Notes: generated by a model from the sequence alone, not told the origin. Shown: positions 3,590 to 31,927, numbered from the stretch's first letter. The stretch: DNA of 64,000 nt from Chloroflexota bacterium (GCA_965262745.1 OZ253558.1:1090567-1154566); one strand, 5' to 3'. Numbers and translations are program-made.

Positions 3590-3628
3590 TGCACCTGGGA
3601 TCGCCCGAGTGACAGGGGCAGCGAGAGC

Positions 3629-7386: not shown

Positions 7387-7822
7387 CTCGCGCACCAACG
7401 CCAGATGGGATGCGACCCCTGCCCGCCACCGGCGAGAACCCCCACGCGCGGCGAACTCGCCGCTGAGTCGGCCAAAAGTGCCGTGCTCAACGCCCTAATC
7501 TTCGGCGTCGTCATTGCGGCCGGCGGTGCCTTCGTCCAGTTAGTGCTGCTGGGCTAGCCGTCCGGCGCGGCGGGCTACCTCGGCCCTGGGCGAATCAAGT
7601 TGTCCATACCGGCGCCCCGGAGCTTGGCCTCCAGCGCGGCCGTCGTGCGCTAACCGTAGCCTCAACCGCCGGCGTGTCGACGTCCGGTGGCGGAATCTGT
7701 GCCGCACCCCACGAGCAACGCGACCCACCACCGGGTATTGCTGTACGCCCACACCCAAAAGACCGACGCCAGGGGGGCGCGGCCACGGAGCTTGCCGTCG
7801 TCGATTCGTCCCTGGAGTTGCT

Positions 7823-9085: not shown

Positions 9086-9204
9086 CGGTCGTTGTACCGC
9101 TTCGGCCTGTCGCCAACCGAGGGCGTCGCGTAACTTCTTGTCATTCCAGCGAAAAGCCTACCCCGTACTCGATACCGGGCCGGAATCCAGGCCCCACCCA
9201 ACCT

Positions 9205-9341
9205 GGAACCGCGCAGGGTTCTCCCAGCACATTCATAGCCAGTCGGGGTTATGCGAACGTACCCAATCCGGAGGGAACCAGTGCAACTCACGCCTTCATC
9301 CGCCTGCCGTCCAGATCGTATAGCGGTTCATTCGCCACCGT
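9205..9341. repeat. Copy A of an approximately 137-bp imperfect direct repeat (about 85% identity to 11105..11240)
   Basis: Direct alignment of the two stretches matches. The last 60 bp (ccttcatccgcctgccgtcc.gatcgtatagcggttcattcgccaccgt) are near identical. Confidence 0.85.
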
Positions 9342-11012: not shown

Positions 11013-11104
11013 CGTGGTCCTCCTAAGGCGTGGGCGTGGGGTGGTGCGCCTGGGTCGCCCGCGCGCCTTACGTGTCATTGTCGGAAAGACCGCAGCGGAT
11101 CTCC

Positions 11105-11240
11105 GGAACCGCGAAGGCTTCTCGCAGCACATTCATCGCCTGTGAGGGCTATGCAAACGTCCCCAATTCGGAGGGACCCCTGCGGCTCACACCTTCATCC
11201 GCCTGCCGTCCGGATCGTATAGCGGTTCATTCGCCACCGT
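11105..11240. repeat. Copy B of the approximately 137-bp direct repeat, covering the DMGDH 3' end and downstream spacer
   Basis: See copy A. Confidence 0.85.
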
Positions 11241-13655: not shown

Positions 13656-13721
13656 CTCGTATGTCTCCTCGACAGGACGACGCCGCCAAGCGATTTGGAG
13701 CTACCGGCTGCCAGGCCTGCC

Positions 13722-14600
13722 TCAGTATTCATACCGCGCGGCAAACTCCGGCTGATGTTTGCTCAGCCACGCTCGCAGCGGGACGGTCTCGTCGGAGGTC
13801 TCCATGCGCCTACCGGAGCCTTCGATGGTGTCAAGCAGCTGTCGGCGAATCGGGTCCCCTAGGTTGCGCGCCTCGTGCCCGTGCGGTAGCACGTTGTCCG
13901 AGTGCAACCAGCGGTATGCATAAGCGTAGAACAAGACTTTCCGCGTCACTTGCGAGTAGTTTGGACTGCCGCTATGCCACAATCGGGCATCGAAGATCAC
14001 CGCGTCACCGGCACGCGAGAGAATGGGCTCGGCGCCGGGAACAAGACCGCCGGCCCCCGGCTTGACCTCGATGCTTCGTCGTCGGTGGCTTCCCGGAATC
14101 ACCCAGAAATTGCCCATGTCGCGTCTGGTGACATCCGTCAGAAAATAGCCGGCTTTCAGCGACAGTCGCGCTGGAATCTCGATCTCGGCCATGTCAAGAG
14201 ATCTGCGGCCGTTATCTTGATGCCACCCCCCGGGTCCCCGTGGACCGTCGCACGGCTCTGGCGGCGTGAGCATGAGATGCGTGTTTTGCAGGAAGATATT
14301 CCAGCCAAGAATCCCCCAAACCTTAGGAAAGGTCGTCGGGTGATCGATGAGGTTTACGAATGCCGGAGCGAGCCCCACCGCGTTCAAGTGCTGCACCCGG
14401 TTGGTGACGCCGGCATAGGTTTCGCCGGCCGCGAGTCGGCCGTCTCGATGCAGACGGTCGATCACATCGACCAGCCCTGCCGCGTGATCCTGGGTAAGCG
14501 CGCCCTCGACATGCAAATACCCGTTGCGCTCGAAGGCTTTCCCTTCCTCCGCGGTGAGCGCATGCCTCAGGCAGTCGGCGTCCAATGTTTGCCCCCCCAC
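13722..14600 (-). CDS. Phytanoyl-CoA dioxygenase (PhyH)-family Fe(II)/2-oxoglutarate oxygenase
   Basis: A HxD...H facial triad sits in a PhyH-like context (GGWHQDNG ... LWHSGSPN). Confidence 0.7.
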   Translation of the reverse strand: MGGQTLDADCLRHALTAEEGKAFERNGYLHVEGALTQDHAAGLVDVIDRLHRDGRLAAGETYAGVTNRVQHLNAVGLAPAFVNLIDHPTTFPKVWGILGWNIFLQNTHLMLTPPEPCDGPRGPGGWHQDNGRRSLDMAEIEIPARLSLKAGYFLTDVTRRDMGNFWVIPGSHRRRSIEVKPGAGGLVPGAEPILSRAGDAVIFDARLWHSGSPNYSQVTRKVLFYAYAYRWLHSDNVLPHGHEARNLGDPIRRQLLDTIEGSGRRMETSDETVPLRAWLSKHQPEFAARYEY

Positions 14601-14654
14601 GCACGCGCCTGCGACGCGAACCTAGCACACGGCGCAAGTGGCGGCAGCACTTAT

Positions 14655-15218
14655 CTAGACCGCGCTCTCGGGCATCCGCTCCCACTCCTCGCGCAGGACC
14701 CCGTAGTAGACAAAGTCCACATGTTCGTCCCGCATCTTGCGATGGCCCCGCAGCAAGCCCTCACGCGTCATGCCGACTTTTTCCATGACGCGCCACGACT
14801 GACGGTTCCTCACATCCGAGCGCGCGAAGACTTTGTGCAGGGCGTATCTCTCGAACCCCCAGTCGATGACGGCCCGAGCTGCCTCCGGCACAATTCCGCG
14901 ACCCCACGCCTGCCTAGCCAGTGCGTAGCCCATCTCAGCTATCTCGTGCCGCACATTAACATGCAAGCTTATGCTGCCGACAACCTGCCGCTCCCAGACT
15001 ATCGCGAACGTTGGTTCGGTCGACCAATCATCAAGAATCCTTCGTGCGACGTACTCCACCGCATCATCGTGCGTGTACGGATGGGGAATCGGCAGATATC
15101 GTCCGACCTCGGGGCCCGACGCGTAGGCCAGCACGTCGTCGACATCACCGAATTCGAACGGCTGCAGCAAGAGCCGCTCCGTCTTCAACTCGACGCGCTC
15201 GTTCGGATCGTGGCTCAT
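14655..15218 (-). CDS. GNAT-family N-acetyltransferase (RimJ/RimL-like)
   Basis: The GNAT core is present (ERLLLQPFEFGD ... GYALARQAWGRG). The ORF extends to 15491 but the first plausible start is MSHDPNE at 15218, just below the upstream gene stop at 15233. Confidence 0.65.
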   Translation of the reverse strand: MSHDPNERVELKTERLLLQPFEFGDVDDVLAYASGPEVGRYLPIPHPYTHDDAVEYVARRILDDWSTEPTFAIVWERQVVGSISLHVNVRHEIAEMGYALARQAWGRGIVPEAARAVIDWGFERYALHKVFARSDVRNRQSWRVMEKVGMTREGLLRGHRKMRDEHVDFVYYGVLREEWERMPESAV

Positions 15219-15232
15219 CGCTTCATCGCTAG

Positions 15233-16210
15233 TTAGTCCTCCGACAGCCCGGCGAACCTTGCCGCGTTCGCGCCGAGGATCAGCCGCTTTTCCTCGTCCG
15301 AGAGGAAGTTCGCATGCGTCGTGACCATCGTGAGGTTCTGCTTGTACGTGCAGCGGCCCTCGGTCCATGGCCAGTCCGTGCCCCACATCACACGCTCCGC
15401 GCCGGCGCCCTTGACCAGCCCCTCCAGTAGCGCGAGTCCGTTGGCGTACGGGTACTCCCATTCCGGGCCTTTCAGCCGGCCGTTCGTCCACGCGATCTCA
15501 TCCCCAAAGAAGATCGTGATGGCGGCGATGTCGGTGTAGAGGTTCTCGTGCCTGTTGAGCAGCCCCACGAAGGGCTCCAACGACGGAAACGGCGGGCGGC
15601 AGTTCGCCAGCCATTGGTCGCCCCAGGTGAAGCACCCCCAATGGGTCAGCAGGAACCGCACCGACGGGAAGTCGCGCGCGACCGGTTCGAATAGGTTGAG
15701 GAACTCCTGATAGTCCGAAACGCAGGCACGCAAGCGAGGATCGTTCCAGCGTTCCCAGGCCATGACGATCGGCACGTCGCGCTCCGCACACAGCTCGTAG
15801 ACCTTGCGCAGGCCGGGGTCGGACGGCCAGTGGCCGGTATAGGCCGGGAACAGCTTGAGCCCCACCGCCCCCGCGTCGAGATCCGCCCGGATCCGGTCGA
15901 GGTAGCCCGGTCGATCGGGGTTGATGTGATCGGTGAACCAGATGAAGCGATCGTGGTCGGCCGCCTTCAGCGCGTCGAGGAAATACTCCTTGGTGATCCG
16001 GTTGATGGCCGGATCGTCCCAGGTGTCGCCGAGGTCCGGCCAGATGTCCTCGGCCGTGTAGCTGATCAGAAAGCACTTGTCCACGCCGGCATAGTTCATC
16101 TCGTCGAGCAGCAGCTCGGCCGACATCGGGTGCCAGGTGTAGTGCATCCGGATACTGCGCTCAACGCCGTGCGCCTTCTCCAAGATGTGGACTTGGGTGT
16201 CGATGATCAT
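15233..16210 (-). CDS. Amidohydrolase-2 family metal-dependent hydrolase (TIM barrel)
   Basis: The protein starts with the metal-ligand motif IDTQVHI and has an HxH-like pattern. Its 325-aa length fits the PF04909-like family. Confidence 0.65.
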   Translation of the reverse strand: MIIDTQVHILEKAHGVERSIRMHYTWHPMSAELLLDEMNYAGVDKCFLISYTAEDIWPDLGDTWDDPAINRITKEYFLDALKAADHDRFIWFTDHINPDRPGYLDRIRADLDAGAVGLKLFPAYTGHWPSDPGLRKVYELCAERDVPIVMAWERWNDPRLRACVSDYQEFLNLFEPVARDFPSVRFLLTHWGCFTWGDQWLANCRPPFPSLEPFVGLLNRHENLYTDIAAITIFFGDEIAWTNGRLKGPEWEYPYANGLALLEGLVKGAGAERVMWGTDWPWTEGRCTYKQNLTMVTTHANFLSDEEKRLILGANAARFAGLSED

Positions 16211-16437
16211 TCGTGCCTCGTTTCTCGGGCATGCGGCCGACGCGTCTTGGTCGCAAAGTCCGCAGCTGTGACCGCAGCGTACTCAGATCGCCCGTGCCTG
16301 GCCCTCAGAGTGCGGGAAGCGGGTCACCCTGACGCAGGCCGGAGCCTCACCTAGCCACCACGGCCCGCGAGCCGCAGGCGAGGAATCTAAGGGGCAGGCC
16401 ATCAGGCTCAGCGCCTGTCGCCTGCTCACTCCTTTCG

Positions 16438-17547
16438 GTGGTCCAGAGCTATGCTGATCCGCATATGGGCGCCGGCTCGGTGCCCGAGGACCCGGCCTAC
16501 CGAACCTCCGCATTGCCCGACCACCGCATCGTTCTCACCTACGACCCTGACGGGACGCTCGTCGACCGCGTCCGCGCCGCACTGCCGCACCGTTCGCTCG
16601 AGATCGTCCGGGCGCTGTCGGCGGACGCCGTGCCCGGCGCGATGCCCGGCACGACGATCTTCTTTGGCAACTACCTCGCCCCGTCGGCGCTGCGACAGGC
16701 GGGCGCGCTGCGCTGGATTCAGACGGTGGGCGCCGGCGTCGACGTGCTGCTGTCCGTCGATCTCGCGGCCACCGACATCGTCGTCACGAATACCAGCGGC
16801 GCCTTCGGCGCCCAGATAGCCGAGCACGCGCTATCGCTCATGTTCGCCCTGGCCCGTCGCCTGCCTGGCGCGCTGCGGTCGCAGGCGGCCCGGCACTACG
16901 CCCCCGAACCCCGCGATGAACTGTTCGAGCTGGCCGGCAAGACTATTGGCATCGTGGGCTTCGGCGACGTCGGCCAGGCGCTGGCGCGGCGCGCGCGTGG
17001 GATTGGCATGCGGGTAATCGCCATGCGGCGACGGCCACGCGGCTCACCTGTAGCCCACCCGTTGATACCGAATCTGCCGCTCGACCCGCTCGCCGGCTCG
17101 GACCCCGACGATCCGTCGGCACTCGCGGACGAGATCGTTGGACCCGACCGCCTGGACGACTTGCTGCGCGACTCCGACGTGGTGGTGAACGCCGCGCCGT
17201 TGACGCCCGCAACGGTGCGCCTCTTCGTCCGGGAACATTTCGCGCGCATGCGGCCGACCGCGTGCTTCATCAACGTGGGCCGCGGTGAGACGGTGGATCA
17301 GGACGCCCTCATCGACGCGCTCCGCGACGGTGTCATCGCCGGCGCCAGCCTGGATGTCACCACCCCCGAGCCGCTGCCGCCCGATTCACCCCTGTGGGCG
17401 CTGCCCAACGTGATTCTCACCGCCCACTACGCCGGCTGGTCCAACACCATGCTCGACCGCATCTACGCGATCTTCACGGACAACCTAGGCCGCTTCGATC
17501 GCGGCGATCCCCTCCGCAACCAAGTGGATGTGCGCGCCGGCTATTGA
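16438..17547 (+). CDS. D-isomer-specific 2-hydroxyacid dehydrogenase-family NAD-binding oxidoreductase
   Basis: It has the NAD-binding motif GKTIGIVGFGDVGQA and the catalytic region FINVGRGETVD...LDVTTPEPLP...LTAHYAGWS. Confidence 0.8.
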   Translation: MVQSYADPHMGAGSVPEDPAYRTSALPDHRIVLTYDPDGTLVDRVRAALPHRSLEIVRALSADAVPGAMPGTTIFFGNYLAPSALRQAGALRWIQTVGAGVDVLLSVDLAATDIVVTNTSGAFGAQIAEHALSLMFALARRLPGALRSQAARHYAPEPRDELFELAGKTIGIVGFGDVGQALARRARGIGMRVIAMRRRPRGSPVAHPLIPNLPLDPLAGSDPDDPSALADEIVGPDRLDDLLRDSDVVVNAAPLTPATVRLFVREHFARMRPTACFINVGRGETVDQDALIDALRDGVIAGASLDVTTPEPLPPDSPLWALPNVILTAHYAGWSNTMLDRIYAIFTDNLGRFDRGDPLRNQVDVRAGY

Positions 17548-17645
17548 TCAGCTCCGCGCTGGCCAGAACGGATCACCAACCTTTTCTGCGATTTGCGCGT
17601 CGGGTTCGGCAATCCGGATCCGATTCGCGACAAGCCTCAACCTGA

Positions 17646-18068
17646 TCAGTCCTCATCCGCCGTAAGGTCCCTATGTGATATCGGTGGCGTTCCGGGAACG
17701 CAGCTCCACGGTTCCCGGTGAACCTCGCTGCCATCGGCTCGGGTGATATGCCAGCTCGCGCTTTCGGGCTCAATGTCTCTGCAATGCTCAATCTTCGCCG
17801 TCCGAATGCACTTGCCGTCGAGGACATAGCTGGTCGCAGACGCGACCCTATGCATAGTTCCATCTCCCGAAATGCGATCTATGGCGAACATCCCCATCTG
17901 GATGTGTCTGTCCAGTTCGTCATCGAACGGCCGGCCATGTACTGCCTCCGCCTCGGCTACGTCGAACAACAAAACCTGTTCCACAGTGTGACCCTCGACG
18001 ATGACATCGATCCATCGCACAGTTACGCCCCGAATCTGCCCGGTTCGCTCAGTGACCTCGGCGGTCAT
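17646..18068 (-). CDS. Hypothetical protein (140 aa), last gene of the 3-gene cassette
   Basis: The ORF overlaps the upstream ADP-ribosylglycohydrolase gene by 4 nt, which suggests translational coupling. I recognise no family for it. Confidence 0.4.
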
Positions 18069-19132
18069 GACGAGTGGCGCTGGTGCAGCACAGCGGGCAA
18101 GGACTGCCGCGCGTGGTCATAGAGGCTGTCGGCCATTGACGTGATCTCCGTCGCCATCGTGAGCAAGTTTCGCCATTGCACCGGAATTGCTTCGGCTCCA
18201 TAAGTGGCGCCGGCGATCTGCCCGTAGATTGCAGCGGTGGTGTCGGCGTCGTCTCCGAGGTTTGCAGCCAGAAGAGCCCCCTCACGAAAGTCCTCGGACT
18301 TGTGAAAGGCCCAGAGAGCCGCCTCCATCGATTCCACAACGTAGCCCGTTCCTCTGATTGCTGGCGGTTCTCGATGCTTGAACGACCCGTCGGCGACGTC
18401 GGCAATCTTTTCCGCCAAGGGGCTTCTTTCCCAATGACCTTCCGCCGGGCAATAGCGTGCGGACAGGAGCGTCTTTTTGTCGACGCCACGCAACGCCCCG
18501 ACTAGCAGGCCGGAGAAGTAGCGGCAACCGTCAACTGCTTCTTCGGCCCCATGGGTGGTTCGCGAGCTATCAGCGCTTCTTCTGATTGCTTGGGAAACAT
18601 CGCCTGCAAAGTACATCGGCACCGGAGCCAGCCGCATGAGTGACCCATTACCGGCGGAATAAGGGTCGGAAGAGCCCGCAAAGGGTTCGTCGGACTCCAT
18701 GAAGCGTGACAACGCACGTGCGACGGTGTTCCCGATGTCGAAGCATGTGCCAGTGGACGAGAGATAGCCCTCATCACGCCAACGCACATAGCGTCGCATC
18801 TGGTCCATCGGGTCAAACTCGCCCCGCTCGATCAAGCTCGCGGCGAGGCACAGGGCCATGGATGTGTCGTCAGTCCACTGGCCGGGTTCTAAGTTAAACG
18901 GTCCGCCACCGATCATGTCGTCGATTGCCTGGAAAGTTCCGGGCCGATTGAACTCCAGCGTGGTGCCGAGCGCGTCACCCGCCGCTAGACCTAGCAGGCT
19001 TCCGCGAAAACGGTCCCGTGTCGCTGGCTCAGTCAAGGTCAATGATGAGGCGGCAATGGTCGCTCGGGCCCCAGTCGTCAGGACTGTTGAGGGCGTGCAC
19101 CGACACGCGGTCGGCGATGTTCTCCGTGGCAA
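18065..19132 (-). CDS. ADP-ribosylglycohydrolase (ARH/DraG-family)
   Basis: The ARH N-terminal motif is [22 protein letters not shown], and the family sequence continues in the rest of the ORF. The real start is probably downstream of 19132. Confidence 0.75.
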
Positions 19133-19826
19133 AGACGTAGTCGGCTTGCGCCCAGGCCTGCGCGGGCGTCGCGCCGATGGATTGGAAAGTCACCACATCG
19201 CCGCGGTCGCTGCGGCGCCCCTCAGGCATGACCTCGCGAAAGCCCAGCGCCTGCATCCGGTCGAAGGCTGTCTGGAAATGCAGGGCCTCGCGTTCGTTCC
19301 AGATCGTTGTCGGATGGGCACTCCAGCCTGGGTAGATGACCCAATCGCCAGCGGCAATGACGCGGCTCTGGCGGCCGACCAAGCGCGCCAGATCAGAGAT
19401 CAGCCGGTGAACCGAGCCAATGCACTCTCGGCGACTCGGCGAGCCCGACTCGCGCGTAAAGGCGTTGTACGCGGGGGCCATGGAGACGACGATAAGCGAC
19501 TCGTCTCCGTCGATCGGGTTCACTATCGCGGCTCCGAGCGTGCCCCACTCGCTCGTGTAGAAGTCGTGGCTGAAGTGATCGCCCATCGGCAGAGTCGCGA
19601 TGAAGCTGACGGAGACCCGGTTGGAAAGCCTGGCCACGACTGAGGGATACCCCAGGGAGGCGTTGTGGTGGTCGGGCCAAAGCCTGTGGTCGACTTCGAC
19701 GTCGTGACGGAGCTCGTCGGGCAGGGGTGACGCCTCCTGCAGCAGCGCAATATCGACACCGGCCATCCGGAGCAGCTCGTTCCATGATTTGCGCGAGTGC
19801 GCCATGTTCCAGCAAACGATCTTCAT
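19029..19826 (-). CDS. Endonuclease/exonuclease/phosphatase (EEP)-family protein
   Basis: The EEP start block is [15 protein letters not shown]...DIALLQEA, and the C-terminus has DH motifs ([12 protein letters not shown]). Confidence 0.7.
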
Positions 19827-20179
19827 GGGGTTCTCCCGGCAGGCAGTTCAGCATTCGTTCGACCATGGGTCCGGCCCGAGAATCCATCGTTTCCGGGCGG
19901 CCCAAGAGCCAGGCGATTGGCGTCTCGCACCTGACCCACGACGAACTCGCTGTGTGGATTGATGATGCCTACATCGTGTCATTCCTGGTTCGGACGGTTT
20001 CTCTCGCGGTACTGGAGTTCGTAGTCGAAATGCTCGATCCGAGCCATCCTGGGTTGCCCTCCCGGCAGGCGACTTGGGAGGATCACCCCGCTCCGTCGTC
20101 GCCCACGAGCCTCAATATTCGTTCGAGCGGGATCTCTGCCTGGATCTGTTCCGGGAGCTACTCACAAGTCCGATAGATC

Positions 20180-20385
20180 GCACTCACCAGGCTGTCGCCA
20201 CGCCCGAACCGCTGCCGCCGGATTCCCCCCTGTGGGCGCTGCCAAACGTGATGCTCACCGCCCACTACGCCGACTGGTCCGACACCATGCTCGACCGCAT
20301 CTACGCAATCTTCACCGACAACCTCCGCCGCTTTGATCGCGGCGAGCCCCTCCGCAACCAGCTCGACGTGCGGGCTGGATATTAG
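20180..20385 (+). pseudogene. Duplicated 3' fragment (about 65 codons) of the 2-hydroxyacid dehydrogenase gene
   Basis: Nt 20180..20385 are about 88% identical to 17345..17547. The remnant encodes PEPLPPDSPLWALPNVMLTAHYADWSDTMLDRIYAIFTDNLRRFDRGEPLRNQLDVRAGY, against the same tail in the intact gene, and ends at the equivalent stop. Confidence 0.85.
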
Positions 20386-20676
20386 GTGGCTCCCGCCAGT
20401 ACGGTTCCAACGAGCCTCGCTTTCAACGGTCGACCGGATTCGAATACCACGGCGTGCTCTGGCCATGTTGTGCATCGGGAGCCGAACAAAGCCGCTCCAA
20501 CAAGGCACTCCACAGTCTGTCGCCGTTTAGTTCCGACAGCACCCGGCACACACCCAGCAGGCCGTCGCCAACGGTCAAGGGCGTCCGCACGTCTACATCG
20601 TCGCATCACCGAAGCGGCAAGCGTACTCTTTGCCCCGGCAGACCTACCAACCCATGCTCGCCGTCACATAAAGCAT

Positions 20677-21330
20677 TTAGTAGATACGCGCGAGGTTCCG
20701 CACCGCGTCCCGAAACACTTGACAGCTTTTCGATCGGTTCCTATCCACGTCCAGGAAAGGCGCTATTTGCTCAGCCCACTCAGCCTTGGCCCGCCCCATC
20801 TCGGGGTACCCCGCTCTAAGGAGCCGCGCCGATCCACCTTGGTATATGGCGTCCGCCAAAACCTCCCACGTTCCGCATATACTGTCCTGAGAGTATCTGT
20901 TCAGAACTGAATTCTTTGCGTTGGGATAGGCAGCCTTTATAGCGTCGCGATCGCCCAGTAGCCACGCCTCAATTTCCTCGATGGCGATCCTAAATACCGT
21001 TTGTGGACGCGGGTAGCATGCCTGGAGCACATTGAGCAGTTGTTGCTTGAATGACAGGCAATCTCTATCGTCCAAGTCCACAATCACCAGTACTGCCTGG
21101 CAAGATCCGAGACTCCTACCATATCCGCGCAAGAGGCGAGGCAGGTGATCCAGTAGCAGTCGCTTCGTTGGATCCGGCACACCGTACAGATTCCTCGGTA
21201 TACGACCAATACCTCGGTAGGAATGAATCCTCCACGAATGCATGGTATTATTTTGACCTAGAATCTTTTCCAGAATAGCCTTGACCGTGATACTTCCAGA
21301 TCTATCCTCAACCAATATTTCGAAATGCAC
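20677..21330 (-). CDS. DUF4276-like protein (predicted TOPRIM/OLD-like nuclease partner)
   Basis: The N-terminus reads HFEILVEDRSGSITVKAILEKILG, followed by an acidic VIVDLDD block typical of DUF4276. The likely GTG start at 21330 lies 4 nt after the ATPase stop. GC is lower than the flanks. Confidence 0.6.
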   Translation of the reverse strand: MHFEILVEDRSGSITVKAILEKILGQNNTMHSWRIHSYRGIGRIPRNLYGVPDPTKRLLLDHLPRLLRGYGRSLGSCQAVLVIVDLDDRDCLSFKQQLLNVLQACYPRPQTVFRIAIEEIEAWLLGDRDAIKAAYPNAKNSVLNRYSQDSICGTWEVLADAIYQGGSARLLRAGYPEMGRAKAEWAEQIAPFLDVDRNRSKSCQVFRDAVRNLARIY

Positions 21331-21334
21331 TTGT

Positions 21335-22618
21335 CTACTGCTGATCGAAGTAGTCGCTGTACCAGAGACCGCCAAGCGGCAGACCTTCTTCGACCAGAGC
21401 TCGGACAATATGATCGTTGCTCGCCCTAGTAATGGTCGCGAAGCCGTCCGCCGATTTCTCCAAGATCCACGTTTCCTCGGGTGTCAGAGCATCGACGAAG
21501 TAGGGTTGGTGGGTCGTGACAAATATCTGGGGCGCGTTCCGGCGCCCCGAGGCGTGGCGGCGAAACTCATCGGCCAGCAATTCCAATAGTTTGTGATAGA
21601 GACCGTTTTCCGGCTCCTCGATGCATATGAACGGCGGCGGCTGCTGATCCTCCAGCATCAGCAGATACGCAAAGACTTTGAGTGTGCCGTCGGACACTTG
21701 CTGCGCGTAGAACGGGTCAGCGAAGCCCTTATCGTTGAAGCGCAGCAGCAAGCGACCGTCAGGACTGCGTTCCGTATCGATGCGGTCGATGCCGGGAACT
21801 CTCCTGGCAATCCGTCCAAGGATGCGTTCAAACCTATCGCGGTGCTCCCGCTCCATGAATTGCACGACGTTGCCCAGATTGTCTCCGTGGATATTCAGAT
21901 GCCGCTGGGGTCCAGCCATTGGCAACCCGCGCGCGGCGTCCGGCGTAAAGTAGCTCAGATACCAGCCTTCGATAAACTGACGAAAAGCCGCGATTCTCGG
22001 ATGTTGCTTCAGTGCCCCCAGGGTTGCAATACCCAGCTTGCGCTTGTCCTGAAGTTCAATAATCTCCCGTCCCGCGCCCTCCTCGTTTTCTAACCCTCTC
22101 AGTAGCGCTGAAAGGTCCACTTCCAGTCGGCCATCTTCATCGACCTGCAAACCCTGCACCTCGCCTGCCCAGGCCATTCCCTTGCCCTCGTTCAGCATCA
22201 AGAACGAAAATGGCCAGCCGCGTCTCTGTCCTCGACGACGCTGGCGCAGGCGTTCGCGTGAAACATAGGGGCGGCCCGAATCGTCCTTGTCGATCGCAAA
22301 TTCGTATGTGATCGGTCGAGCCTTCGAATCCTGCCGGTAATAGACCTCGAACTCGATGGGGGTGTCGCTACCCTGTGATCGTATGCGGTCGAACCCGCCG
22401 CGCCCACGCACGTCGCAGGCCTCTTCGACACCGAGCTTCAGGCAATCCGCCAGGAATCCGAAAGCATCGAATAGGGAGCTCTTGCCAACCCCGTTCTTTC
22501 CAATCACCGCCGTCAGCGGCTCTAACGGCTGGGCGGCAGGCGTGTTCCACAGCTTGCCTAGGGTGATGTCGTGCAACACCCGGTAGTTCCTGATGCCGAT
22601 GCCTTCGATACGGGCCAT
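21335..22618 (-). CDS. AAA_21/ABC-type ATPase (OLD/AbiL/PARIS-AriA-like ATPase component)
   Basis: There is a Walker A (GKNGVGKSSLFDAF) near the N-terminus, and a distal signature/Walker B region (FICIEEPENGLYHKLL...VTTHQP). Confidence 0.75.
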   Translation of the reverse strand: MARIEGIGIRNYRVLHDITLGKLWNTPAAQPLEPLTAVIGKNGVGKSSLFDAFGFLADCLKLGVEEACDVRGRGGFDRIRSQGSDTPIEFEVYYRQDSKARPITYEFAIDKDDSGRPYVSRERLRQRRRGQRRGWPFSFLMLNEGKGMAWAGEVQGLQVDEDGRLEVDLSALLRGLENEEGAGREIIELQDKRKLGIATLGALKQHPRIAAFRQFIEGWYLSYFTPDAARGLPMAGPQRHLNIHGDNLGNVVQFMEREHRDRFERILGRIARRVPGIDRIDTERSPDGRLLLRFNDKGFADPFYAQQVSDGTLKVFAYLLMLEDQQPPPFICIEEPENGLYHKLLELLADEFRRHASGRRNAPQIFVTTHQPYFVDALTPEETWILEKSADGFATITRASNDHIVRALVEEGLPLGGLWYSDYFDQQ

Positions 22619-22788
22619 GCGGTCAGTTTCTCTCGTTTAGCGCAGCACCGCTAGCAGCATAGCGTCGAGCAGGCTTGTTTCCACTGCCGCGAGGACAGAG
22701 AGCGGATAGGGCGTTGGCCAAGCGCCCGCGGTCGACGTCGCGGACCTTCTCGGGCCTCCAACAGATTGCGCACTGTCGCCACTTCGAA

Positions 22789-22835
22789 TGGTGCCCAGGA
22801 CGGGACTGGAACCCGCACAGCCCGGAGGCCACCAG
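22789..22835 (-). other. tRNA 3'-end remnant (variable arm, T-arm, acceptor 3' strand and CCA), a probable island att-site duplicate
   Basis: The reverse complement (tggcctccgggctgtgcgggttccagtcccgtcctgggcacca) matches the 3' 45 nt of the intact tRNA-Leu at 35720..35803 with 3 mismatches. The 5' part does not fold as a tRNA. Confidence 0.6.
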
Positions 22836-23031
22836 ACCCTAAACCGAGGTCAACCCACCGCCAGGCACTGCCGCAGCGCCTTGACCATGGCCGGTCGCTG
22901 CTCACGGCTCCTCGTGCCGACCGGATTGGCGATCGCCCGCATCACGACCTGTTGATCGGACGCTGAGAAGCGTAATCCCCGGCGCTGCTCCGCGGATGCC
23001 TGATACCCGCCACAGCCTCTGTCGCCCTGCA

Positions 23032-26000
23032 CTACGCGGGTGTGAGCGGGCTCTCAGCCTCGTCGTGGGCCATTTCAAACAGCCGCGCCAGGGCGTTGGC
23101 CAGGTGCATTTGGCGGGGCGTGCGGCAGCGCACGGCGAGCAAGCCCGGACTGGCCACGACTACCGCCAGGCACTTGGCGCGGCTGGTGGCGACGTTCAAG
23201 CGGTTGAGGCTGTAGAGAAACTCCATGCCACGCGGCGCCTCGTCGGCAGAGCTTGTGGCCATCGAGTAGATGGAAATCGGGGCTTCCTGGCCTTGGAACT
23301 TATCGACAGTGCCGATTCGCAACTCCCGGAGCTCAGGTCGGGATGCAAGCTCCCCGATCTGGCGGTTGTAGGGCGTGATGATGAGCACGTCTTGAGCGGT
23401 CAGCGCGTGGGTCGCGCCTTCGGCGTCAGTCCATGAGGCGCGCGACCGGAGCAACCGGTCGACGCTCTCGGCAATCGCCGCCGCCTCTTCCTCGGAGTCG
23501 CTGATGCGGCGCTCGTGCGACACGGCCACGAAGCGCAGTCCTGTCCCGAGGAACGGGGACGAGCCGGCCAGGTCCAAGTTCTCGCGGCCGGGATGCGCGC
23601 GCAGGTTGTCCTCGTAGAAGACTTCCGAGGTGAACTCACAGATGCTGGGATGCAGGCGCCACGTGCCGTCGAGAAACAGTCCGAAGTCCTTGGGCATCAC
23701 TCGTGCGTCATCGAGTACGTGCGCCAGCACCGAACGATCCGCGCCTGGCGGATGCACGCCCTGCAGCGGCTGATCCAGCTGCTGCGGGTCGCCCAGCAGC
23801 AACAGGCTCTTGGCGCAACGTGCCGAGGCCAAGGCGTCGGCCAGCGACATCTGCCCGGCCTCGTCGATGCAGAGCACGTCCACCAAGCCCTCCGCGTCGT
23901 CACGCGCCCAGAGCCAGGAAGTTCCGCCCACCACGTCAAGCGTTCCTCTGGCCAGGGCCATGCACGCATCCTCGGTTTTCGCGAGGGGTACCGCGTCCGC
24001 GAATTCGGGCTCGGCTGACCGGTAGCGGGTCCGCTGGCCGATCCTGACCGGGACGCCGCGCTCGCGGGCCACCCGCGCCGTCTTCTCCAGCAACTCACCG
24101 ATCACCTTGTGGCTGTTGGCCGTCACGCCCACGCGCTTACCCGCCTCCACGAGGTCCACGATCATCTCGGCACCAACCGTGCTCTTGCCCGAGCCGGGCG
24201 GTCCCTGGATCGCCAGGTAGCTCTCGTCCAGCATCTGCACCAGCCGCCGGGCCGCATCCTGCGCATCCTCGCCGTCCGCCGTCAGCGGTGATCCGTCGGT
24301 CTGTCCAACCCGTGGCGGACAGCGCATCAACAGGTCTCGGGCCGCCTGGTACGGCCCGGGCGCGTCGATCCCGTGCTCAATCACCCACGTCGCCAGATTC
24401 CGAAGGCTCGACGGTTTTGGCCCTGGATTGACATATTCGTAGGCGATCAGTGATGTCGGCGCCGGTGCTGCCCGGTTGGACCCAACCTTCAGGTCGATCA
24501 CGCCGTCTCGATCGTTTACCGCGACCACTTCGCCGATCGAATTTCCGTGCTGATCGCGTGGCCGGTCGCCGACTTCGATCTTGTGGTCCTGTGGCGGGAA
24601 CCGAAAGCTGTAGATCTTGGAACGCGACTTGGGCCTGGGATCGGCCCGACTGCGCACGTAGCTGAGCTGGCCCAGCGCGTCCGTCTCGCCGACTCGCTCT
24701 TCGTCGGTGAGTTCGTCCTTCAGGTGGAAATAGCGCCACCAGAACGCCTTATCCTCGCGCCGGTGCCAGTCGAGCAGCTGCGCCAGGAGCCACCGCCCGC
24801 GTTGGCTCGGATCTTCGAGCGACCTGCCGTCCGTCAAGTCCTCGGGCAGGCCCGCTGTCAGCTGGGCCACGAGTTCCTGCACCTCCCGCTGGGCCTCCGT
24901 GTCCTCGGTCTCTTCGGGAGGCTTGACCGTAGGACGCGGCGGGGCTTCGGCGCCGACTTCGTTCACCAGCGCGGCGCGCTGGACTTCCAGCCACTCGCGC
25001 AGATAGCAGGTGGAAAGACAGTCGTCGCGGTTATAGGCCCTGATCTTCTCCAGCAGGCCGTCCCGGTCGGTCCCGTCCTCGGGTTCGAGCCAGTTCTCGA
25101 ACTCCACGATGCTCTCGCCCGCATCGCGTAGATCGATTTCCCGCTTGAATCCGTAGAGCGGCTCCAGCCGCTTGATGGAGTAGCTCTCCACCGAAGCGCG
25201 AACGCCCTGCCGCACGACGCGGTAGAGGTCCACGAACACACTGCCCCGCAGCAGCTGGTCCACCTCTGACTCACGCGTGGCGTAGCGCCCCGCCAGCCGC
25301 TTCATTGCCCCTGTCTCGTAGGGCGCGTAGTGATAGACGTGCATGTCCGGGTGGCCAGTCCGGCGCTCCATGATGAGGTCGATACAGTCCTCGAACGCCT
25401 TACGCTCGGCCGCCGGCGACACGGTGCCGTCCGCGATCGACCAGAACGCGTGAAACCTGGGGTCGCCCGCGGCGTCCGTCTGTCCCGGCTCGATCACGCC
25501 GAAGAGGTAGTCGATGCCGTCGATCTCGTCCGAGCCATAGAACGGATCGCCCTCCAGGTCCAGGAACAGGTCACCGGGCGACGGCTCCGGCAACAGCCAG
25601 AGACCGCGGTCCGGAACAACCACGTCCTCGCGGTCGCGTTCGGGCGGGATGCGCTCCGAGATCACCTGGCCTTCGCCGCGCACCTGGATCGCCGCCTGGG
25701 CCTGCACCCGGGCCAGCGAAACCGGGCTGACGCCGTCCAGCTGTTCCGGCAGCGGCCGCGACGGATCGGCCAGCCCACCCCGTGTGGTCACGTCAATGGC
25801 GTGCAGGGCGCGTCGCTGGCGGGACGTCAGGTTGGCCACCAACGCCAGATCGTCTTCCCGACGCCACTGGGCTCGGCATTCCTGGTTCCACCTGCAGAAG
25901 TCGCAGTGCTGCATGGGTTCCGGCTTGGTCGAGATTGGAAACGCCGATTCGGAGTCGTCGAGCAGCGTCTCGAACTGCCGCGCGACCAGGCGGTAGTAGG

Positions 26001-26577
26001 CCCCGTAGTCGGCGACCCGAAGGCTCGCGGTCCTGCGCGCGACGCCGCCCAGCACCAGATGCATCCGTTCCGGCGGCCGCCCCTGCATTCTCCCGAGCAG
26101 GTCTGAATACATGCTGATCTGCAAGACGGCGGGGGCCGTGGGTTGCCGCGCCAGCTTGGTGTCCCAGACTTCATAGCTCCATGCCCCGAGGTCGCTGGGT
26201 TTCTCGACGCGGCGCAGGAAGTCCGCGTACCCCAGCCGCCGGTCGCCGAGCAGCACGGCCTGGTAGATCACGTCAACGCCATCTCGCATCGCCTGCAGCG
26301 TGGCGGCGTGCTCGGATTCAACCACTCGGGACGGAGACACGGTGTCGGGCGGCCGGATTTCCCTGATTCCCAGGTTCTCGGCGTCCAGCGATTCCAGGAA
26401 GCGCGCCTCATACTCCCGACCGCGCCGCGCCAAACGGTCGAGCACTGGGTCGTCACGAAACGGCCGTTTGAGGTCATGCAGAACCGCGGCGCGCTCCAGG
26501 TTGGCCAGGTGCCGGCACTCCAGGAACGCGACCAGATCGGTGGCGGAGTAGACCAGACGCCTATCAATCAGTTGCAT
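23032..26577 (-). CDS. RecB-like nuclease + RNaseH-like domain + SF1 (Upf1/Dna2-like) helicase fusion protein (TM0106-family N-terminal region)
   Basis: The 1181-aa ORF has an N-terminal RecB/Cas4-like region with a Cys cluster (HCDFCRWNQEC). It has a C-terminal Walker A (GPPGSGKST), a Walker B (CIDEAGQ) and SF1 motifs (GDPQQL, VATSRAK). Confidence 0.7.
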   Translation of the reverse strand: MQLIDRRLVYSATDLVAFLECRHLANLERAAVLHDLKRPFRDDPVLDRLARRGREYEARFLESLDAENLGIREIRPPDTVSPSRVVESEHAATLQAMRDGVDVIYQAVLLGDRRLGYADFLRRVEKPSDLGAWSYEVWDTKLARQPTAPAVLQISMYSDLLGRMQGRPPERMHLVLGGVARRTASLRVADYGAYYRLVARQFETLLDDSESAFPISTKPEPMQHCDFCRWNQECRAQWRREDDLALVANLTSRQRRALHAIDVTTRGGLADPSRPLPEQLDGVSPVSLARVQAQAAIQVRGEGQVISERIPPERDREDVVVPDRGLWLLPEPSPGDLFLDLEGDPFYGSDEIDGIDYLFGVIEPGQTDAAGDPRFHAFWSIADGTVSPAAERKAFEDCIDLIMERRTGHPDMHVYHYAPYETGAMKRLAGRYATRESEVDQLLRGSVFVDLYRVVRQGVRASVESYSIKRLEPLYGFKREIDLRDAGESIVEFENWLEPEDGTDRDGLLEKIRAYNRDDCLSTCYLREWLEVQRAALVNEVGAEAPPRPTVKPPEETEDTEAQREVQELVAQLTAGLPEDLTDGRSLEDPSQRGRWLLAQLLDWHRREDKAFWWRYFHLKDELTDEERVGETDALGQLSYVRSRADPRPKSRSKIYSFRFPPQDHKIEVGDRPRDQHGNSIGEVVAVNDRDGVIDLKVGSNRAAPAPTSLIAYEYVNPGPKPSSLRNLATWVIEHGIDAPGPYQAARDLLMRCPPRVGQTDGSPLTADGEDAQDAARRLVQMLDESYLAIQGPPGSGKSTVGAEMIVDLVEAGKRVGVTANSHKVIGELLEKTARVARERGVPVRIGQRTRYRSAEPEFADAVPLAKTEDACMALARGTLDVVGGTSWLWARDDAEGLVDVLCIDEAGQMSLADALASARCAKSLLLLGDPQQLDQPLQGVHPPGADRSVLAHVLDDARVMPKDFGLFLDGTWRLHPSICEFTSEVFYEDNLRAHPGRENLDLAGSSPFLGTGLRFVAVSHERRISDSEEEAAAIAESVDRLLRSRASWTDAEGATHALTAQDVLIITPYNRQIGELASRPELRELRIGTVDKFQGQEAPISIYSMATSSADEAPRGMEFLYSLNRLNVATSRAKCLAVVVASPGLLAVRCRTPRQMHLANALARLFEMAHDEAESPLTPA

Positions 26578-26723
26578 CGCCGATTCACCAGCCCGTCCCC
26601 ATGGCCGACGGCTTCACCCCGGCCACGCGTGCGATCAGCGCGAGCGCGTTGCCAACATACTCCGCGAGGCGACACCGGGCCAGATTGTGGGCCGCCTGCC
26701 GCGGCATGAAGCTGGGGCGACGC

Positions 26724-27452
26724 TCACAGCGGCAGCAGGTGCCCCGCTTCGCGCAGCCGCTGACGCCGCTGTTGCGCGTCCGGCATCGCTCTAACCACCA
26801 GCCCCCAGAAGTCCGGCCCGTGGTTCTTTATTGACAGGTGCGCCAGCTCGTGCACCACGATGTACTCGACAAGGGCAGGCTCCAACATCATCGCCCGCCA
26901 GTTGAAGCGCAGCGTGCCGTCCGGCGCGCAGCTCCCCCAGCGCCGGCGTTGATCGCGGATCAGCACGCGCGGCCAGTCGCCGTGACCCAGGCGCGGCCAC
27001 CAGCGCTCCACGCTAGTTGGCAGGCGGTCTGCCGCCCGCCTCCGATACCAGGCCACGAGGGCGCGCTGGGCACTGCGGGTTCGCTCACTATCGGACGCCC
27101 CCGTTGGCACCGTGACGCGGAACCGCCAGTGATCGAAGCGCACGCTCACCGACCTGACGTCGGCGTGCTCGACCAGCAAACGCACGTTGCGGCCCAGGTA
27201 AGGCAACGTCTCACCGCTCACAAAGCGCTTCGGCGCGGCGGCCAGCGTCTCCGCGGTGCTGCGGCGCATGATCCAGGCCGCCCGCTTGCGCACGATCCCC
27301 CGCAACTCCTCGGCGGGCGTCGAAACAGGCGCGGCGACCTGGACCCCGCCCCCGTCCACGGTGATCTGCACCGTCTTCCTGCGCCGCTGACTGCGCTGCA
27401 CCTCGAACTCGATCGTGCTCTCGCCGAAACGGACGGATCCCCGCTCACTCAC
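26724..27452 (-). CDS. DUF45/YgjP-like M48-type zinc metallohydrolase
   Basis: The HExxH motif (VVHELAHL) sits in a YgjP-like context. The ORF overlaps the hsdR stop by 4 nt. Confidence 0.65.
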   Translation of the reverse strand: MSERGSVRFGESTIEFEVQRSQRRRKTVQITVDGGGVQVAAPVSTPAEELRGIVRKRAAWIMRRSTAETLAAAPKRFVSGETLPYLGRNVRLLVEHADVRSVSVRFDHWRFRVTVPTGASDSERTRSAQRALVAWYRRRAADRLPTSVERWWPRLGHGDWPRVLIRDQRRRWGSCAPDGTLRFNWRAMMLEPALVEYIVVHELAHLSIKNHGPDFWGLVVRAMPDAQQRRQRLREAGHLLPL

Positions 27453-31924: not shown

Positions 31925-31927
31925 GCG

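Follow-up and report, generated by a model that had tools for sequence, protein, structure and literature searches.

The 3′ end of a D-2-hydroxyacid dehydrogenase gene (dh) occurs twice in the window, i.e. the whole stretch of 64,000 nucleotides analysed here, and three genes on the opposite strand lie between its copies. The locus thus raises the question of how a partial copy of a metabolic-type gene came to lie ahead of exchangeable, mostly defence-type cargo, and whether it marks the insertion of a mobile element or a scar of recombination by the cell itself. The features of the locus are listed in Table 1; related loci are denoted by numbers preceded by L.

Table 1 Features between the dh and hel border genes, in window coordinates
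Feature	Position	Strand	Support or remark
D-2-hydroxyacid dehydrogenase (dh), intact, left border of the variable interval	16438..17547	+	Pfam 2-Hacid_dh_C 1.3e-52
Copy A: final 65 codons and TGA stop of intact dh	17349..17547	+	alignment, repeat search
98-nt spacer, dh stop to stop of the 140-aa gene	17548..17645	.	flanked by TGATCAG copies at 17545-17551 and 17643-17649
140-aa gene, no family assignment	17646..18068	-	ORF
ADP-ribosylglycohydrolase gene (Tri1/DraG-like)	18065..19036	-	Pfam ADP_ribosyl_GH 4e-81
265-aa gene, weak match to the Endonuclease/Exonuclease/phosphatase (EEP) fold	19029..19826	-	Pfam Exo_endo_phos 6e-4, under cut-off
360-nt non-coding stretch upstream of the EEP-like gene; right end is the putative illegitimate joint to dh codon ~305	19827..20186	.	
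Copy B: 65 codons and TAG stop, 5′-truncated dh fragment	20187..20385	+	
Native downstream flank of dh	20386..20500	.	95-98% identical to the flank behind intact dh in L036 and L032
HEC-01 candidate defence pair (DUF4276 protein and AAA_21 ATPase), second cargo set	20677..22618	-	PADLOC HEC-01B 1e-88, HEC-01A 2e-190
tRNA-Leu 3′ fragment, right boundary of the HEC-01 tract	22790..22848	-	86-89% identical to the 3′ part of the full tRNA-Leu at 35718-35803
hel: 1181-aa RecB-like nuclease and superfamily-1 helicase, conserved right border	23032..26577	-	Pfam RNase_H_2, AAA_11, AAA_12; NCBIfam TM0106-family nuclease 2e-74

The gene-end repeat and the genes between its copies

A repeat search of the window aligned 17349-17545 with 20187-20383, both on the plus strand, at 88% identity, and in the pairwise alignment of copies A and B 173 of 199 positions are identical, stop codons counted. 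The direct repeats are 197-199 nt long, are spaced by 2838 nt and share a longest exact block of 25 nt. A chance origin of the match is excluded, as the second-best ungapped match of copy A in the window reaches only 88/199 (mean 55, sd 7.4) and the comparison of both copies gives a BLAST E value of 9e-68. An assembly artefact was ruled out, since the arrangement recurs, with its non-homologous joint on the left side of copy B, in the independent assemblies L003, L038 and L048 (89-96% identical) and also in L028, a near-identical second assembly.

The duplication of the dh end in frame, as put forward in the original prediction, is therefore real, and so are the three opposite-strand genes between the copies. 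The stop, which had been described as the same in both copies, lies at the homologous position but differs in codon (TGA at 17545-17547, TAG at 20383-20385). Likewise, the similarity was said to end exactly at the stop codons; this holds at the level of BLAST, but a motif of 17-19 nt (GCCAGnACGGnTCCAAC), the sole piece in common beyond, is shared about 20 nt further on. Pairwise and BLAST comparison found no dehydrogenase homology upstream of 20187, so that copy B does not belong to a complete second gene, in agreement with the earlier assignment as a gene-end fragment rather than a paralogue. Pfam recognises the last 26 residues of the domain in copy B and no more. Copy B is a 5′-truncated, decaying piece of pseudogene without a coding role. 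Copy A is 92-95% identical to the intact alleles of close relatives (94.9% for L033, 92.4% for L036), copy B 88-90% to every intact allele compared.

Orthologues of dh with 79-96% identity are present in 20+ related Chloroflexota contigs. The 98-nt spacer behind dh is limited to the genomes that carry the cassette (the window, L003, L038 and L048), and L005, L007 and L014 contain a single TGATCAG within which the stops of dh and of the 140-aa gene overlap. The 140-aa protein has no match in Pfam, NCBIfam, PADLOC, PHROGs or PDB; it has 240 close homologues, the best 120 of which are 69-98% identical. Its gene adjoins dh in L004, L005, L007 and L014 and comes after an ADP-ribosylglycohydrolase gene in L044. 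The ADP-ribosylglycohydrolase also matches the NCBIfam Tri1 family (4e-97), under the curated cut-off, and probably starts with the TTG at 19036, as judged from the 323-aa orthologues of L004 and L048 and the alignment; this would give an 8-nt overlap with the stop of the EEP-like gene. For the latter, homology among five copies in relatives is confined to the span from start to stop codon, and its position varies: it lies upstream of the helicase in L001 and L007, in L007 between a 3′ fragment of the helicase and the full gene.

The non-coding stretch that follows contains no coding remnant detectable by tblastx. Its joint to copy B at 20186/20187 is also present in L038 and L048, and L003 has no equivalent of 20028-20253. 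What originally followed the DNA upstream of the EEP-like gene turned up in none of the related loci compared. Behind copy B, 20433-20498 also matches the flank downstream of the L002 dh. The tRNA-Leu fragment is shared with L036 and L037, tRNA-Leu-like fragments lie beside the helicase in L048 and L029, and hel borders the interval in every related locus whose sequence covers this part, L002 excepted. Searches with Pfam, PADLOC and NCBIfam found no integrase or transposase among the sizeable ORFs from 13.7 to 36.9 kb (none, that is, from 17.5 to 35.8 kb), and the three-gene cassette has no terminal inverted repeats and apparently no fixed att core.

Empty sites and cargo turnover in related loci

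The closely related L036 and L037 (92-96% identical) correspond to the window minus 17546-20186 and minus 26648-35717, and their intact dh runs colinearly into window 20187-26647, i.e. copy B, its flank and everything after. In L032, the intact dh is likewise followed by the flank of copy B and ends with TAG, as does copy B. The repeated sequence is therefore single in these three genomes, which contain one dh end and the flank of copy B. In the deeper lineages L005, L007 and L014, the 140-aa and ADP-ribosylglycohydrolase genes abut dh without a duplication, and in L004 they lie behind another insert. This adjacency, together with a divergence in step with that of dh, indicates that both genes are old residents and not newcomers. 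The founding event could thus have been an insertion of the three genes, a gain of copy B with the second cargo set, or a later pop-out in the empty genomes. The copies B of the window and of L038 have derived changes in common, one of them a Gly-to-Asp replacement, and hence a single origin; the event that produced copy B is old and happened once.

The uninterrupted junction of dh with downstream sequence that the original prediction expected in relatives is thus present, and the empty sites fit its proposal that a three-gene cassette was inserted. The marks of an autonomous element are missing, and two of the three genes are old neighbours of dh; the segment is not a self-contained mobile element, and the duplicate is best read as a recombination scar. 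The two other events in the window, described as having the same footprint, do have gene-end duplicates bracketing other segments, but their geometry differs: one duplicate comprises the 5′ end of hsdR, the other the 3′ end and intergenic sequence of a dimethylglycine-dehydrogenase-like gene. What the duplicates of the window have in common is a recombination scar and not one type of element. Similar remnants occur in the relatives. About 40 nt of the dh end lie behind a Dsr1-like gene in L004, hel-end remnants are found beside the EEP-like gene in L007 (~180-210 nt) and in L038 (28 nt), L007 also contains a 1-kb amidohydrolase duplicate, and 5′-truncated dh copies begin at codon ~96 in L006 and at codon ~232 in L029 and L030.

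The four genomes with the cassette differ in what lies behind copy B, where the window has HEC-01, L038 three other genes, L048 a reverse-transcriptase gene and L003 nothing. The codon at which copy B stops varies with this cargo, being TAG with HEC-01 (as in L036 and L032), TAA in L038 and TGA in L048 and L003. The window and L036 share the flank, HEC-01 and the tRNA fragment at 97-100% identity, against 88-91% for copy B, 92% for dh and 95-96% for hel. The identity of the HEC-01 tract thus falls at copy B and shifts again at the tRNA fragment, marking a recent exchange tract with its left end at the stop of copy B. Within the repeat, a tract of 49 nt contains five sites that group copy A of the window with copy B of L003 and copy B of the window with copy A of L003, and none that groups the orthologous copies. 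This crosswise pattern, based on few sites within ~200 nt, suggests an exchange of alleles between the copies, with crossovers at differing positions inside the repeat. Across the relatives, the interval from dh to hel has at least eight alternative contents, and cargo-specific sequence of at least six types starts ~0-40 nt from the dh stop. Random illegitimate joints should scatter more widely than this, and the clustering may be a sign of a preferred site. The interval between dh and the convergent hel is an integrase-free hypervariable slot of an uncultivated Chloroflexota group, occupied mostly by defence-type genes.

Origin of the duplicate

From these observations we infer that the duplicate is a scar of the cell's own recombination, by which cargo sets were stacked through one illegitimate joint and after which copy B served as a homology anchor, a reading considered moderately likely. 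In the ancestor of the window, L038, L048 and L003, two versions of the locus would have been joined, one consisting of dh, the 98-nt spacer and the 140-aa, ADP-ribosylglycohydrolase and EEP-like genes, and the other of dh, its native flank, other cargo and hel. Such a joining would require two exchanges: a homologous crossover within a border gene common to both versions, and an illegitimate joint, without homology, by which the DNA upstream of the EEP-like gene became linked to codon ~305 of the second dh. Recombination would then be anchored by homology on one side alone, and the single-crossover integration of a circle would give an identical product. Microhomology of 3-10 nt at the illegitimate joint is the usual mark of anchor-plus-illegitimate-join recombination. 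In the window, non-coding DNA meets the interior of dh at 20186/20187, and the other side is homologous through dh or hel. The product would carry two cargo sets in tandem, with the intact dh retaining its own end as copy A and a 197-nt piece of the other dh remaining ahead of the second cargo set as copy B. Copy B would provide homology for any incoming dh 3′ end; later swaps of the cargo to its right could use copy B as the left anchor and hel or the tRNA-Leu fragment as the right one, and the three genes could be lost again if copies A and B recombined.

It is also conceivable, though on the whole unlikely, that the gene-end copies are working parts of an integrase-free cassette platform, in which host homologous recombination stacks, swaps and pops out defence cassettes. 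The 3′ ends of dh, hel and tRNA-Leu and the 5′ end of hsdR would then travel with the cassettes as docking sites, and breaks made by the island's own nucleases would perhaps provoke recombination. If true, the locus would be integron-like in function, with gene ends in the place of attC sites.

Other explanations can be weighed against the stacking of cargo sets by host recombination. Copies A and B would be attL and attR if the segment were what is left of an integrative island, or an element without an integrase that is mobilised in trans, with an att site in the dh 3′ end and a replacement gene end on board. The classical geometry of intact gene end, cargo and displaced partial gene end agrees with this, as do the identical 25-nt block inside the repeat, the clustering of cargo junctions near the dh stop and the tRNA-Leu 3′ fragment, an apparently integrase-made duplicate in the island. 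Moreover, tyrosine integrases lie beside tRNA genes and truncated dh copies in L006 and L029/L030, and given these, recombinase-driven steps may have occurred somewhere in the history of the locus. However, these integrases are located at tRNA-Leu and tRNA-Gly and not at an intact dh end, and none of the four cassette carriers has a recombinase gene in or near the cassette. Furthermore, independent dh remnants start at codons ~96, ~232, ~305 and ~357 and thus do not share an outer boundary, the allele pattern of the window and L003 indicates varied crossover positions, and similar duplicates take in a gene 5′ end and a whole 1-kb gene. Site-specific integration is therefore regarded as improbable. 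No more probable is a duplicate made in place, perhaps at breaks introduced by an island-encoded nuclease, with copies A and B identical at birth and diverging later. This would place the locus in a published class (PMC2853133), in which long direct repeats extend over a stop codon, a relative has the empty site and mobility genes are lacking, and nuclease-like proteins are indeed among the cargo; in L004, both copies of the dh end share lineage-specific states, as expected when a resident allele is duplicated. On the other hand, the sequences behind the stop codons are almost unrelated compared to 88% identity in the coding part, and so sharp an end is unexpected unless the break occurred exactly there. 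In addition, 17 of the 22 differences between A and B fall at third codon positions, above the expectation for free drift of copy B since its birth, and two allele types with derived states of their own lie crosswise in the window and L003.

If the segment from dh codon ~305 to past the EEP-like gene had been duplicated in tandem and every duplicated gene then reduced to a single copy, the gene order would have changed and copy B would be a remainder. The EEP-like gene is indeed found upstream of hel in L001 and L007 and here between the ADP-ribosylglycohydrolase gene and hel, and L007, with two EEP-like copies, the hel 3′ fragment and the amidohydrolase duplicate, looks like the outcome of incomplete resolution. 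The EEP-like copies of L007 are just ~75% identical over the 300 nt compared, though, and at least three precise deletions are required. The 317 nt between the EEP-like and ADP-ribosylglycohydrolase genes of L003 and L048 contain no helicase remnant, and the flank of copy B is the native flank of uninterrupted relatives and not a copy of the 98-nt spacer. This explanation, already disfavoured, is very unlikely. Finally, a repeat of ~200 nt at a gene 3′ end, reaching to the stop and with a second copy a few kb away, recalls a diversity-generating retroelement whose template and variable repeats would serve to alter the dh C-terminus. This was refuted by the substitution spectrum, since the mismatches between A and B involve all four bases in both directions without adenine specificity; no reverse transcriptase was found in the island of the window, and copy B is a truncated gene end with its native downstream flank. 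Its probability is negligible.

Significance and comparison with known systems

The locus bears on how defence systems enter and leave integrase-free hotspots such as those of E. coli and P. aeruginosa. It offers a natural series from an uncultivated phylum in which empty, single-cargo and stacked states of one slot occur together with a dated border-gene remnant at the stacking joint and a near-identical cassette in two genomes whose flanks have diverged by 4-8%. Taken together, these point to host recombination anchored in the ends of border genes as the mechanism of turnover. A truncated border-gene copy within a defence island would then mark the boundary of independently acquired cassettes, which helps to delimit systems, and should not by itself be counted as the att site of a mobile element.

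Tyrosine-recombinase islands insert in the 3′ ends of tRNA and protein genes, and their integrase-less derivatives are known as cis-mobilisable elements. The dh locus resembles them in the pairing of an intact gene end with a displaced partial end across the cargo, and in the accretion of several units in tandem, but a cognate recombinase is absent, independent dh remnants have no common boundary and the positions of crossovers appear to vary. In the minimal mobile elements of Neisseria, alternative gene sets lie between conserved border genes. Integrase-free core defence hotspots have been described in P. aeruginosa (cDHS; PMC10250203) and in E. coli (PMC10121019). Both types share with the dh-hel interval two constant border genes, many gene sets, a lack of mobility genes and an exchange ascribed to homologous recombination in the flanks. 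Unlike their clean replacement, the dh locus has two stacked sets, and the way in which this came about is recorded by a leftover piece of the border gene.

Two known patterns come closest to the locus, insertion with long target duplication, and displacement arrays formed by a homologous anchor and an illegitimate join. The former concerns units of a few kb between direct repeats of 30 to ~420 bp that are single at the empty site (Nobusato et al. 2000, Gene 259:99; Furuta, Abe & Kobayashi 2010, PMC2853133), and the repeats often lie over a start or stop codon, so that the target gene stays intact (PMC2853133). Furuta et al. (2010) selected cases by direct repeats >30 bp, an insert <20 kb, an empty site, no other mobile-element genes, and restriction and modification genes; the window agrees in repeat length, insert size, empty site and lack of mobile genes, and departs from this definition in the restriction and modification genes. 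The few-kb unit between long repeats, the absence of an integrase or transposase, the intact gene and the defence-type cargo are all alike. However, restriction-modification units make up the published cases, and their repeats are near-identical, mostly 92-100% (PMC2853133), whereas the cargo here (the 140-aa, ADP-ribosylglycohydrolase and EEP-like genes) is of another kind, the repeats are 88% identical, the event is old and common to lineages of 89-96% identity, and one repeat copy precedes further exchangeable cargo.

Displacement arrays are known from the orphan immunity genes of Vibrio cholerae T6SS clusters and from orphan Rhs/CDI toxin modules, and are ascribed to homology-facilitated illegitimate recombination (Kirchberger et al. 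2017, PMC5361080). As proposed for the dh locus, a conserved upstream gene acts there as the homologous anchor, cargo is added by one illegitimate joint, older cargo is moved downstream and fragments of the conserved gene end are left between modules, with ordinary homologous replacement as the commoner process at the same locus (PMC5361080). The anchor gene of those arrays encodes the variable toxin end, whereas here it is a metabolic-type dehydrogenase with no functional link to the cargo, and the fragment retained between the two cargo sets has the true stop codon.

The duplicated gene end and its uninterrupted counterpart

The window is GC-rich DNA of an uncultivated Chloroflexota bacterium, in which the end of a D-2-hydroxyacid dehydrogenase gene (dh) is present twice, once in place (copy A) and once as a partial duplicate downstream (copy B; see table). 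A repeat search of the window places the two copies at 88% identity; with the stops included, 173 of 199 positions are identical and the longest exact block is 25 nt, and the next best ungapped match to copy A within the window reaches 88 of 199. Beyond both stops the sequences are unrelated, apart from one 17–19-nt motif. The original observation of an in-frame duplicate of the dh 3' end, with three minus-strand genes between the copies, thus holds in every particular except the claim of the same stop, which is correct for the position but not for the codon (TAG in copy B, TGA in copy A). Upstream of 20187 there is no dehydrogenase homology, which rules out that copy B belongs to a complete second, paralogous dehydrogenase gene. 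Chance or an assembly artefact is ruled out by the match statistics and by the occurrence of the same joint in four independent, diverged assemblies, and a diversity-generating retroelement is refuted by the substitution spectrum of the differences between the copies. Just 3' of the dh stop, the predicted folding is no better than that of shuffled sequence, giving no sign of a terminator or structured element.

Features of the window referred to in the text
Feature	Position	Strand	Remarks
Lower-GC stretch	2546–7199		56–60% GC
137-nt unit, two copies	9205–9341; 11105–11240		about 87% identity
614-aa gene	9288–11132		no family match
dh	16438–17547	+	D-2-hydroxyacid dehydrogenase
Copy A	17349–17547	+	last 65 dh codons and stop
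TGATCAG, two copies	17545–17551; 17643–17649		enclose 98-nt spacer
140-aa gene		−	between copies A and B; no family assignment
ADP-ribosylglycohydrolase gene		−	between copies; likely TTG start at 19036, overlapping the next gene's stop
EEP-like gene (265 aa)		−	between copies; weak endonuclease/exonuclease/phosphatase match
Copy B	20187–20385	+	recurrence of copy A, in frame, stop at homologous codon
Flank of copy B			290 nt, directly right of copy B
HEC-01			after the flank; candidate defence pair (DUF4276 protein, AAA_21 ATPase)
tRNA-Leu 3' fragment	22790–22848		59 nt; after HEC-01
hel	23032–26577	−	1181-aa RecB-like nuclease/helicase
Restriction-modification block	26648–35717		after hel; type I cluster with MNT/HepT toxin-antitoxin pair
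hsdR start, two copies	30409–30529; 31241–31361		first ~40 codons
MNT/HepT pair	30899–31216; 30535–31095		bracketed by hsdR duplicates
Complete tRNA-Leu	35718–35803

Relatives of the locus were gathered by searching with the dehydrogenase protein and looking up the contigs of the matches; the close ones are all Chloroflexota metagenome-assembled genomes, many at 92–96% nucleotide identity, and a scan of metagenome contigs added only one short close relative (L014). Among them, the predicted uninterrupted junction between dh and its downstream sequence was found in L036 and L037, contigs of 2.7 and 3.7 Mb. Their amidohydrolase gene and dh align to window positions 15194–17545, and from the dh end on they are colinear with 20187–26647 and then with 35718–39267, so that both correspond to the window minus 17546–20186 and minus the restriction-modification cluster. 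A further relative, L032, ends 81 nt past its dh stop, and those 81 nt are the flank of copy B. In addition, the TAG stop of copy B is found in L032 and L036 and in no other allele. Given this colinearity, the L032 flank and the common stop, copy B with its flank is the native end of the locus, in the form found in uninterrupted relatives.

Each carrier of copy B has a different continuation: the window has HEC-01, L048 has a reverse-transcriptase gene, L038 has a 28-nt remnant of the hel end and then three unrelated genes, and in L003 hel comes directly after copy B. The stop of copy B tracks this cargo, being TAG with HEC-01 (also in L036 and L032), TAA in L038 and TGA in L048 and L003. From the flank of copy B through HEC-01 to the tRNA fragment (20386–22800 vs L036 11084–13500), window and L036 are 97–100% identical, with one local divergent patch at 21487–21687; outside this tract, identity is 88–91% for copy B, 92% for dh and 95–96% for hel. 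The HEC-01 tract has been recently exchanged, and its left end lies at the end of dh homology. As the neighbouring genes are 4–8% diverged, the alignment indicates a recent horizontal exchange of the HEC-01 cassette. No integrase or transposase domain was detected in the sizeable open reading frames at 13.7–36.9 kb or within the first 7.8 kb.

A second assembly of essentially the same genome (L028) is identical over 8835–28067 except for one base at 21725, which is missing in the window and splits the AAA_21 gene in L028. The two assemblies diverge sharply, by about 4%, in an aminomethyltransferase-like gene at 7814–8834, which marks a recombination boundary or else a switch of the assembly from one strain to another. 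The lower-GC stretch near the left end of the window encodes a cytochrome P450, a sterol-methyltransferase-like enzyme (Sterol_MT_C) and an MMPL/sterol-sensing-domain protein, a sterol-related set that is unusual for a bacterium.

The three cassette genes

The 140-aa and EEP-like proteins gave no informative match in Pfam, NCBIfam, PADLOC, PHROGs or PDB sequences, and the 140-aa family comprises 240 close homologues. In three deeper lineages of 80–87% identity (L005, L007 and L014), the 140-aa gene abuts dh, their convergent stops overlapping in a single TGATCAG, and is followed by the ADP-ribosylglycohydrolase gene and hel, without a duplicate. The window, L003, L038 and L048 have two copies of this heptamer with a 98-nt spacer between them. 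A miniature transposon with a 7-bp target duplication is an unlikely source of the spacer, which lacks inverted ends and starts with ~35 nt similar to the native flank of dh in other genomes; the likeliest explanation is that the three deeper lineages lost it by deletion between the 7-nt repeats.

The divergence of the 140-aa, ADP-ribosylglycohydrolase, EEP-like and helicase genes between genomes is about that of dh. The more distant genome L044 has an operon, adjoining a homologous helicase, of genes for a phosphatase, an ADP-ribosylglycohydrolase and a 155-aa homologue of the 140-aa protein, and on this evidence the three cassette genes have the appearance of a functional module that belongs with the helicase. 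The L044 arrangement suggests a conserved module, possibly defence-related. There (2558–8468), the phosphatase is of the dual-specificity type, the operon is divergent from the nuclease-helicase gene, and HEPN and NYN genes then follow. In L039–L043 (~8001–11800), a 79%-identical 140-aa homologue lies between transporter and short-chain dehydrogenase genes, with a variable slot right after it, the content of which is GmrSD in one genome and in others a methyltransferase-Mrr fusion.

The EEP-like gene is present in five copies among the relatives, the homology of which is confined to the open reading frame. Since their flanks vary, as do their places and orientations relative to the remnants, the gene has no element ends, and a self-mobile unit or homing nuclease is ruled out. 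The empty site in relatives bears out part of the proposed cassette insertion. The cassette does not form an autonomous element, nor are its genes recent arrivals: in deeper lineages the 140-aa gene adjoins dh and is followed by the ADP-ribosylglycohydrolase gene, without a duplicate. The phylogenetic distribution favours the three genes, rather than the block of copy B plus cargo, as the resident partner.

Related scars in the variable slot

The interval between dh and hel is a hypervariable slot, the content of which in relatives is HEC-01, the three-gene module, a reverse transcriptase, a Dsr1-like sirtuin, a Gabija-like ATPase and UvrD pair, cadherin and fibronectin-domain proteins, or a protein of 781 or 1505 aa. 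Remnants of border genes are common and vary in length, in target gene and in the gene end that is kept. L004 has an intact dh, a Dsr1-like sirtuin defence gene (1170 aa, 11170–14682) and a ~40-nt dh-end remnant (14952–14996) abutting the 140-aa gene, and is an independent event at the dh end with other cargo. In L007, an extra EEP-like gene has the full hel on one side and, on the other, a ~200-nt hel-end fragment (12568–12779) that is still joined to the ADP-ribosylglycohydrolase gene as in the native arrangement; L003 has no helicase remnant between its EEP-like and ADP-ribosylglycohydrolase genes. Furthermore, a 1-kb duplicate of the whole amidohydrolase gene brackets the dh-to-hel block of L007 (8617–9621 and 19532–20533; 88% identity, 10.9 kb apart). 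Truncated dh copies starting from codon ~96 (L006) or ~232 (L029/L030) adjoin tyrosine integrases located directly after tRNA-Leu (L006, 7688–10822) or tRNA-Gly (L029/L030, 8056–10663), in the order tRNA, integrase, 5'-truncated dh, variable defence cargo and helicase. An integrase fragment is fused in frame to dh codon ~232 in L029/L030, and the block from dh end to helicase seems to have been captured by integrative islands in these genomes.

Within the window, the start of hsdR, the type I restriction subunit gene, is duplicated at 83% identity and a distance of 832 nt around the toxin-antitoxin pair, a scar of the same kind, here at a 5' end. The 137-nt unit consists of the last 54 nt of an 822-aa dimethylglycine-dehydrogenase-like gene and ~83 nt downstream, and the 614-aa reading frame it brackets terminates inside the duplicated 54 nt; this gene is absent from L001, L004, L033 and L036, occurs as 566–576-aa variants in L032, L034 and L038, and forms a tandem pair in L046/L047. 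The tRNA-Leu fragment and the full tRNA-Leu bracket the helicase and the restriction-modification cluster without an integrase. As the same pair encloses the helicase alone in L036/L037, the restriction-modification block is a further insertion adjoining the tRNA; L003 lacks the fragment. In L001, a 95-nt ARAGORN call of 'tRNA-Phe(gaa)' (18809–18903) lies just upstream of the EEP-like gene, with its 3' part 83% like the tRNA-Leu 3' end; it may be an unusual tRNA or a further boundary fragment derived from a tRNA.

Origin of copy B and comparison with known systems

The joint left of copy B is common to the window, L038 and L048, and is spanned by a 226-nt deletion in L003. Copy B of the window and L038 has common derived states that are absent from every intact allele, including a Gly-to-Asp change, and it is 88–90% identical to every intact allele, the intact alleles being 91–96% identical among themselves. 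On account of the shared joint, the shared derived states and this lower identity, copy B is a decaying fragment of single origin. In the clearly aligned coding part, 17 of the 22 differences between the copies fall at third codon positions, and a codon-position test for constraint on copy B, with few sites, had an intermediate outcome. In a 49-nt tract, five sites group copy A of the window with copy B of L003 and vice versa, and none group the orthologous copies. The intact dh of L032 has an A-type dinucleotide at 17487–17488, and further on B-type states, the TAG stop and the B-type flank. Such patterns would be expected from recombination at varying positions, either between A and B or between alleles linked to different cargo; given the few informative sites, they are supporting evidence only.

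The simplest account that fits all observations is host recombination, which we consider somewhat better than an even bet. In the founding event, two versions of the locus would have been joined by a single homologous crossover within a border gene together with an illegitimate joint from the region upstream of the EEP-like gene to dh codon ~305, stacking two cargo sets with copy B left between them. The outcome would be identical for a linear fragment anchored at one end and for a circle that integrates through a single crossover. From then on, copy B would have served as the left homology anchor for cassette replacement, in the same way as the intact dh end in other genomes, and recombination between A and B could delete the three cassette genes. 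Selection would explain why only dh-intact products are seen, and the divergence of the repeats, with a longest exact block of 25 nt, why they persist.

A site-specific recombinase acting in trans would agree with the clustering of cargo junctions within ~40 nt of the dh stop and with the integrases near truncated dh copies in other genomes, but no recombinase gene was found in any of the four carriers, and the model conflicts with remnant boundaries and crossover positions that vary, which makes it rather unlikely. In-place duplication of a long target by staggered breaks fits a published pattern, yet is improbable in that it leaves both the abrupt loss of similarity at the stop and the two allele types unexplained. 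Tandem duplication followed by random loss would require several precise deletions and should have left remnants that are absent, and is the explanation to which we give very little credence.

[quoted passage not shown] New aspects are the phylum, a cargo other than restriction genes, a remnant that is old and of single origin, and a clear series of empty, single and stacked loci with turnover continuing behind the remnant. The dh-to-hel slot resembles integrase-free defence hotspots, and the mechanism proposed for the dh locus matches the model of an anchor plus an illegitimate joint that was put forward for Rhs/CDI orphan modules and for the arrays of orphan immunity genes in type VI secretion clusters of Vibrio cholerae (PMC5361080).
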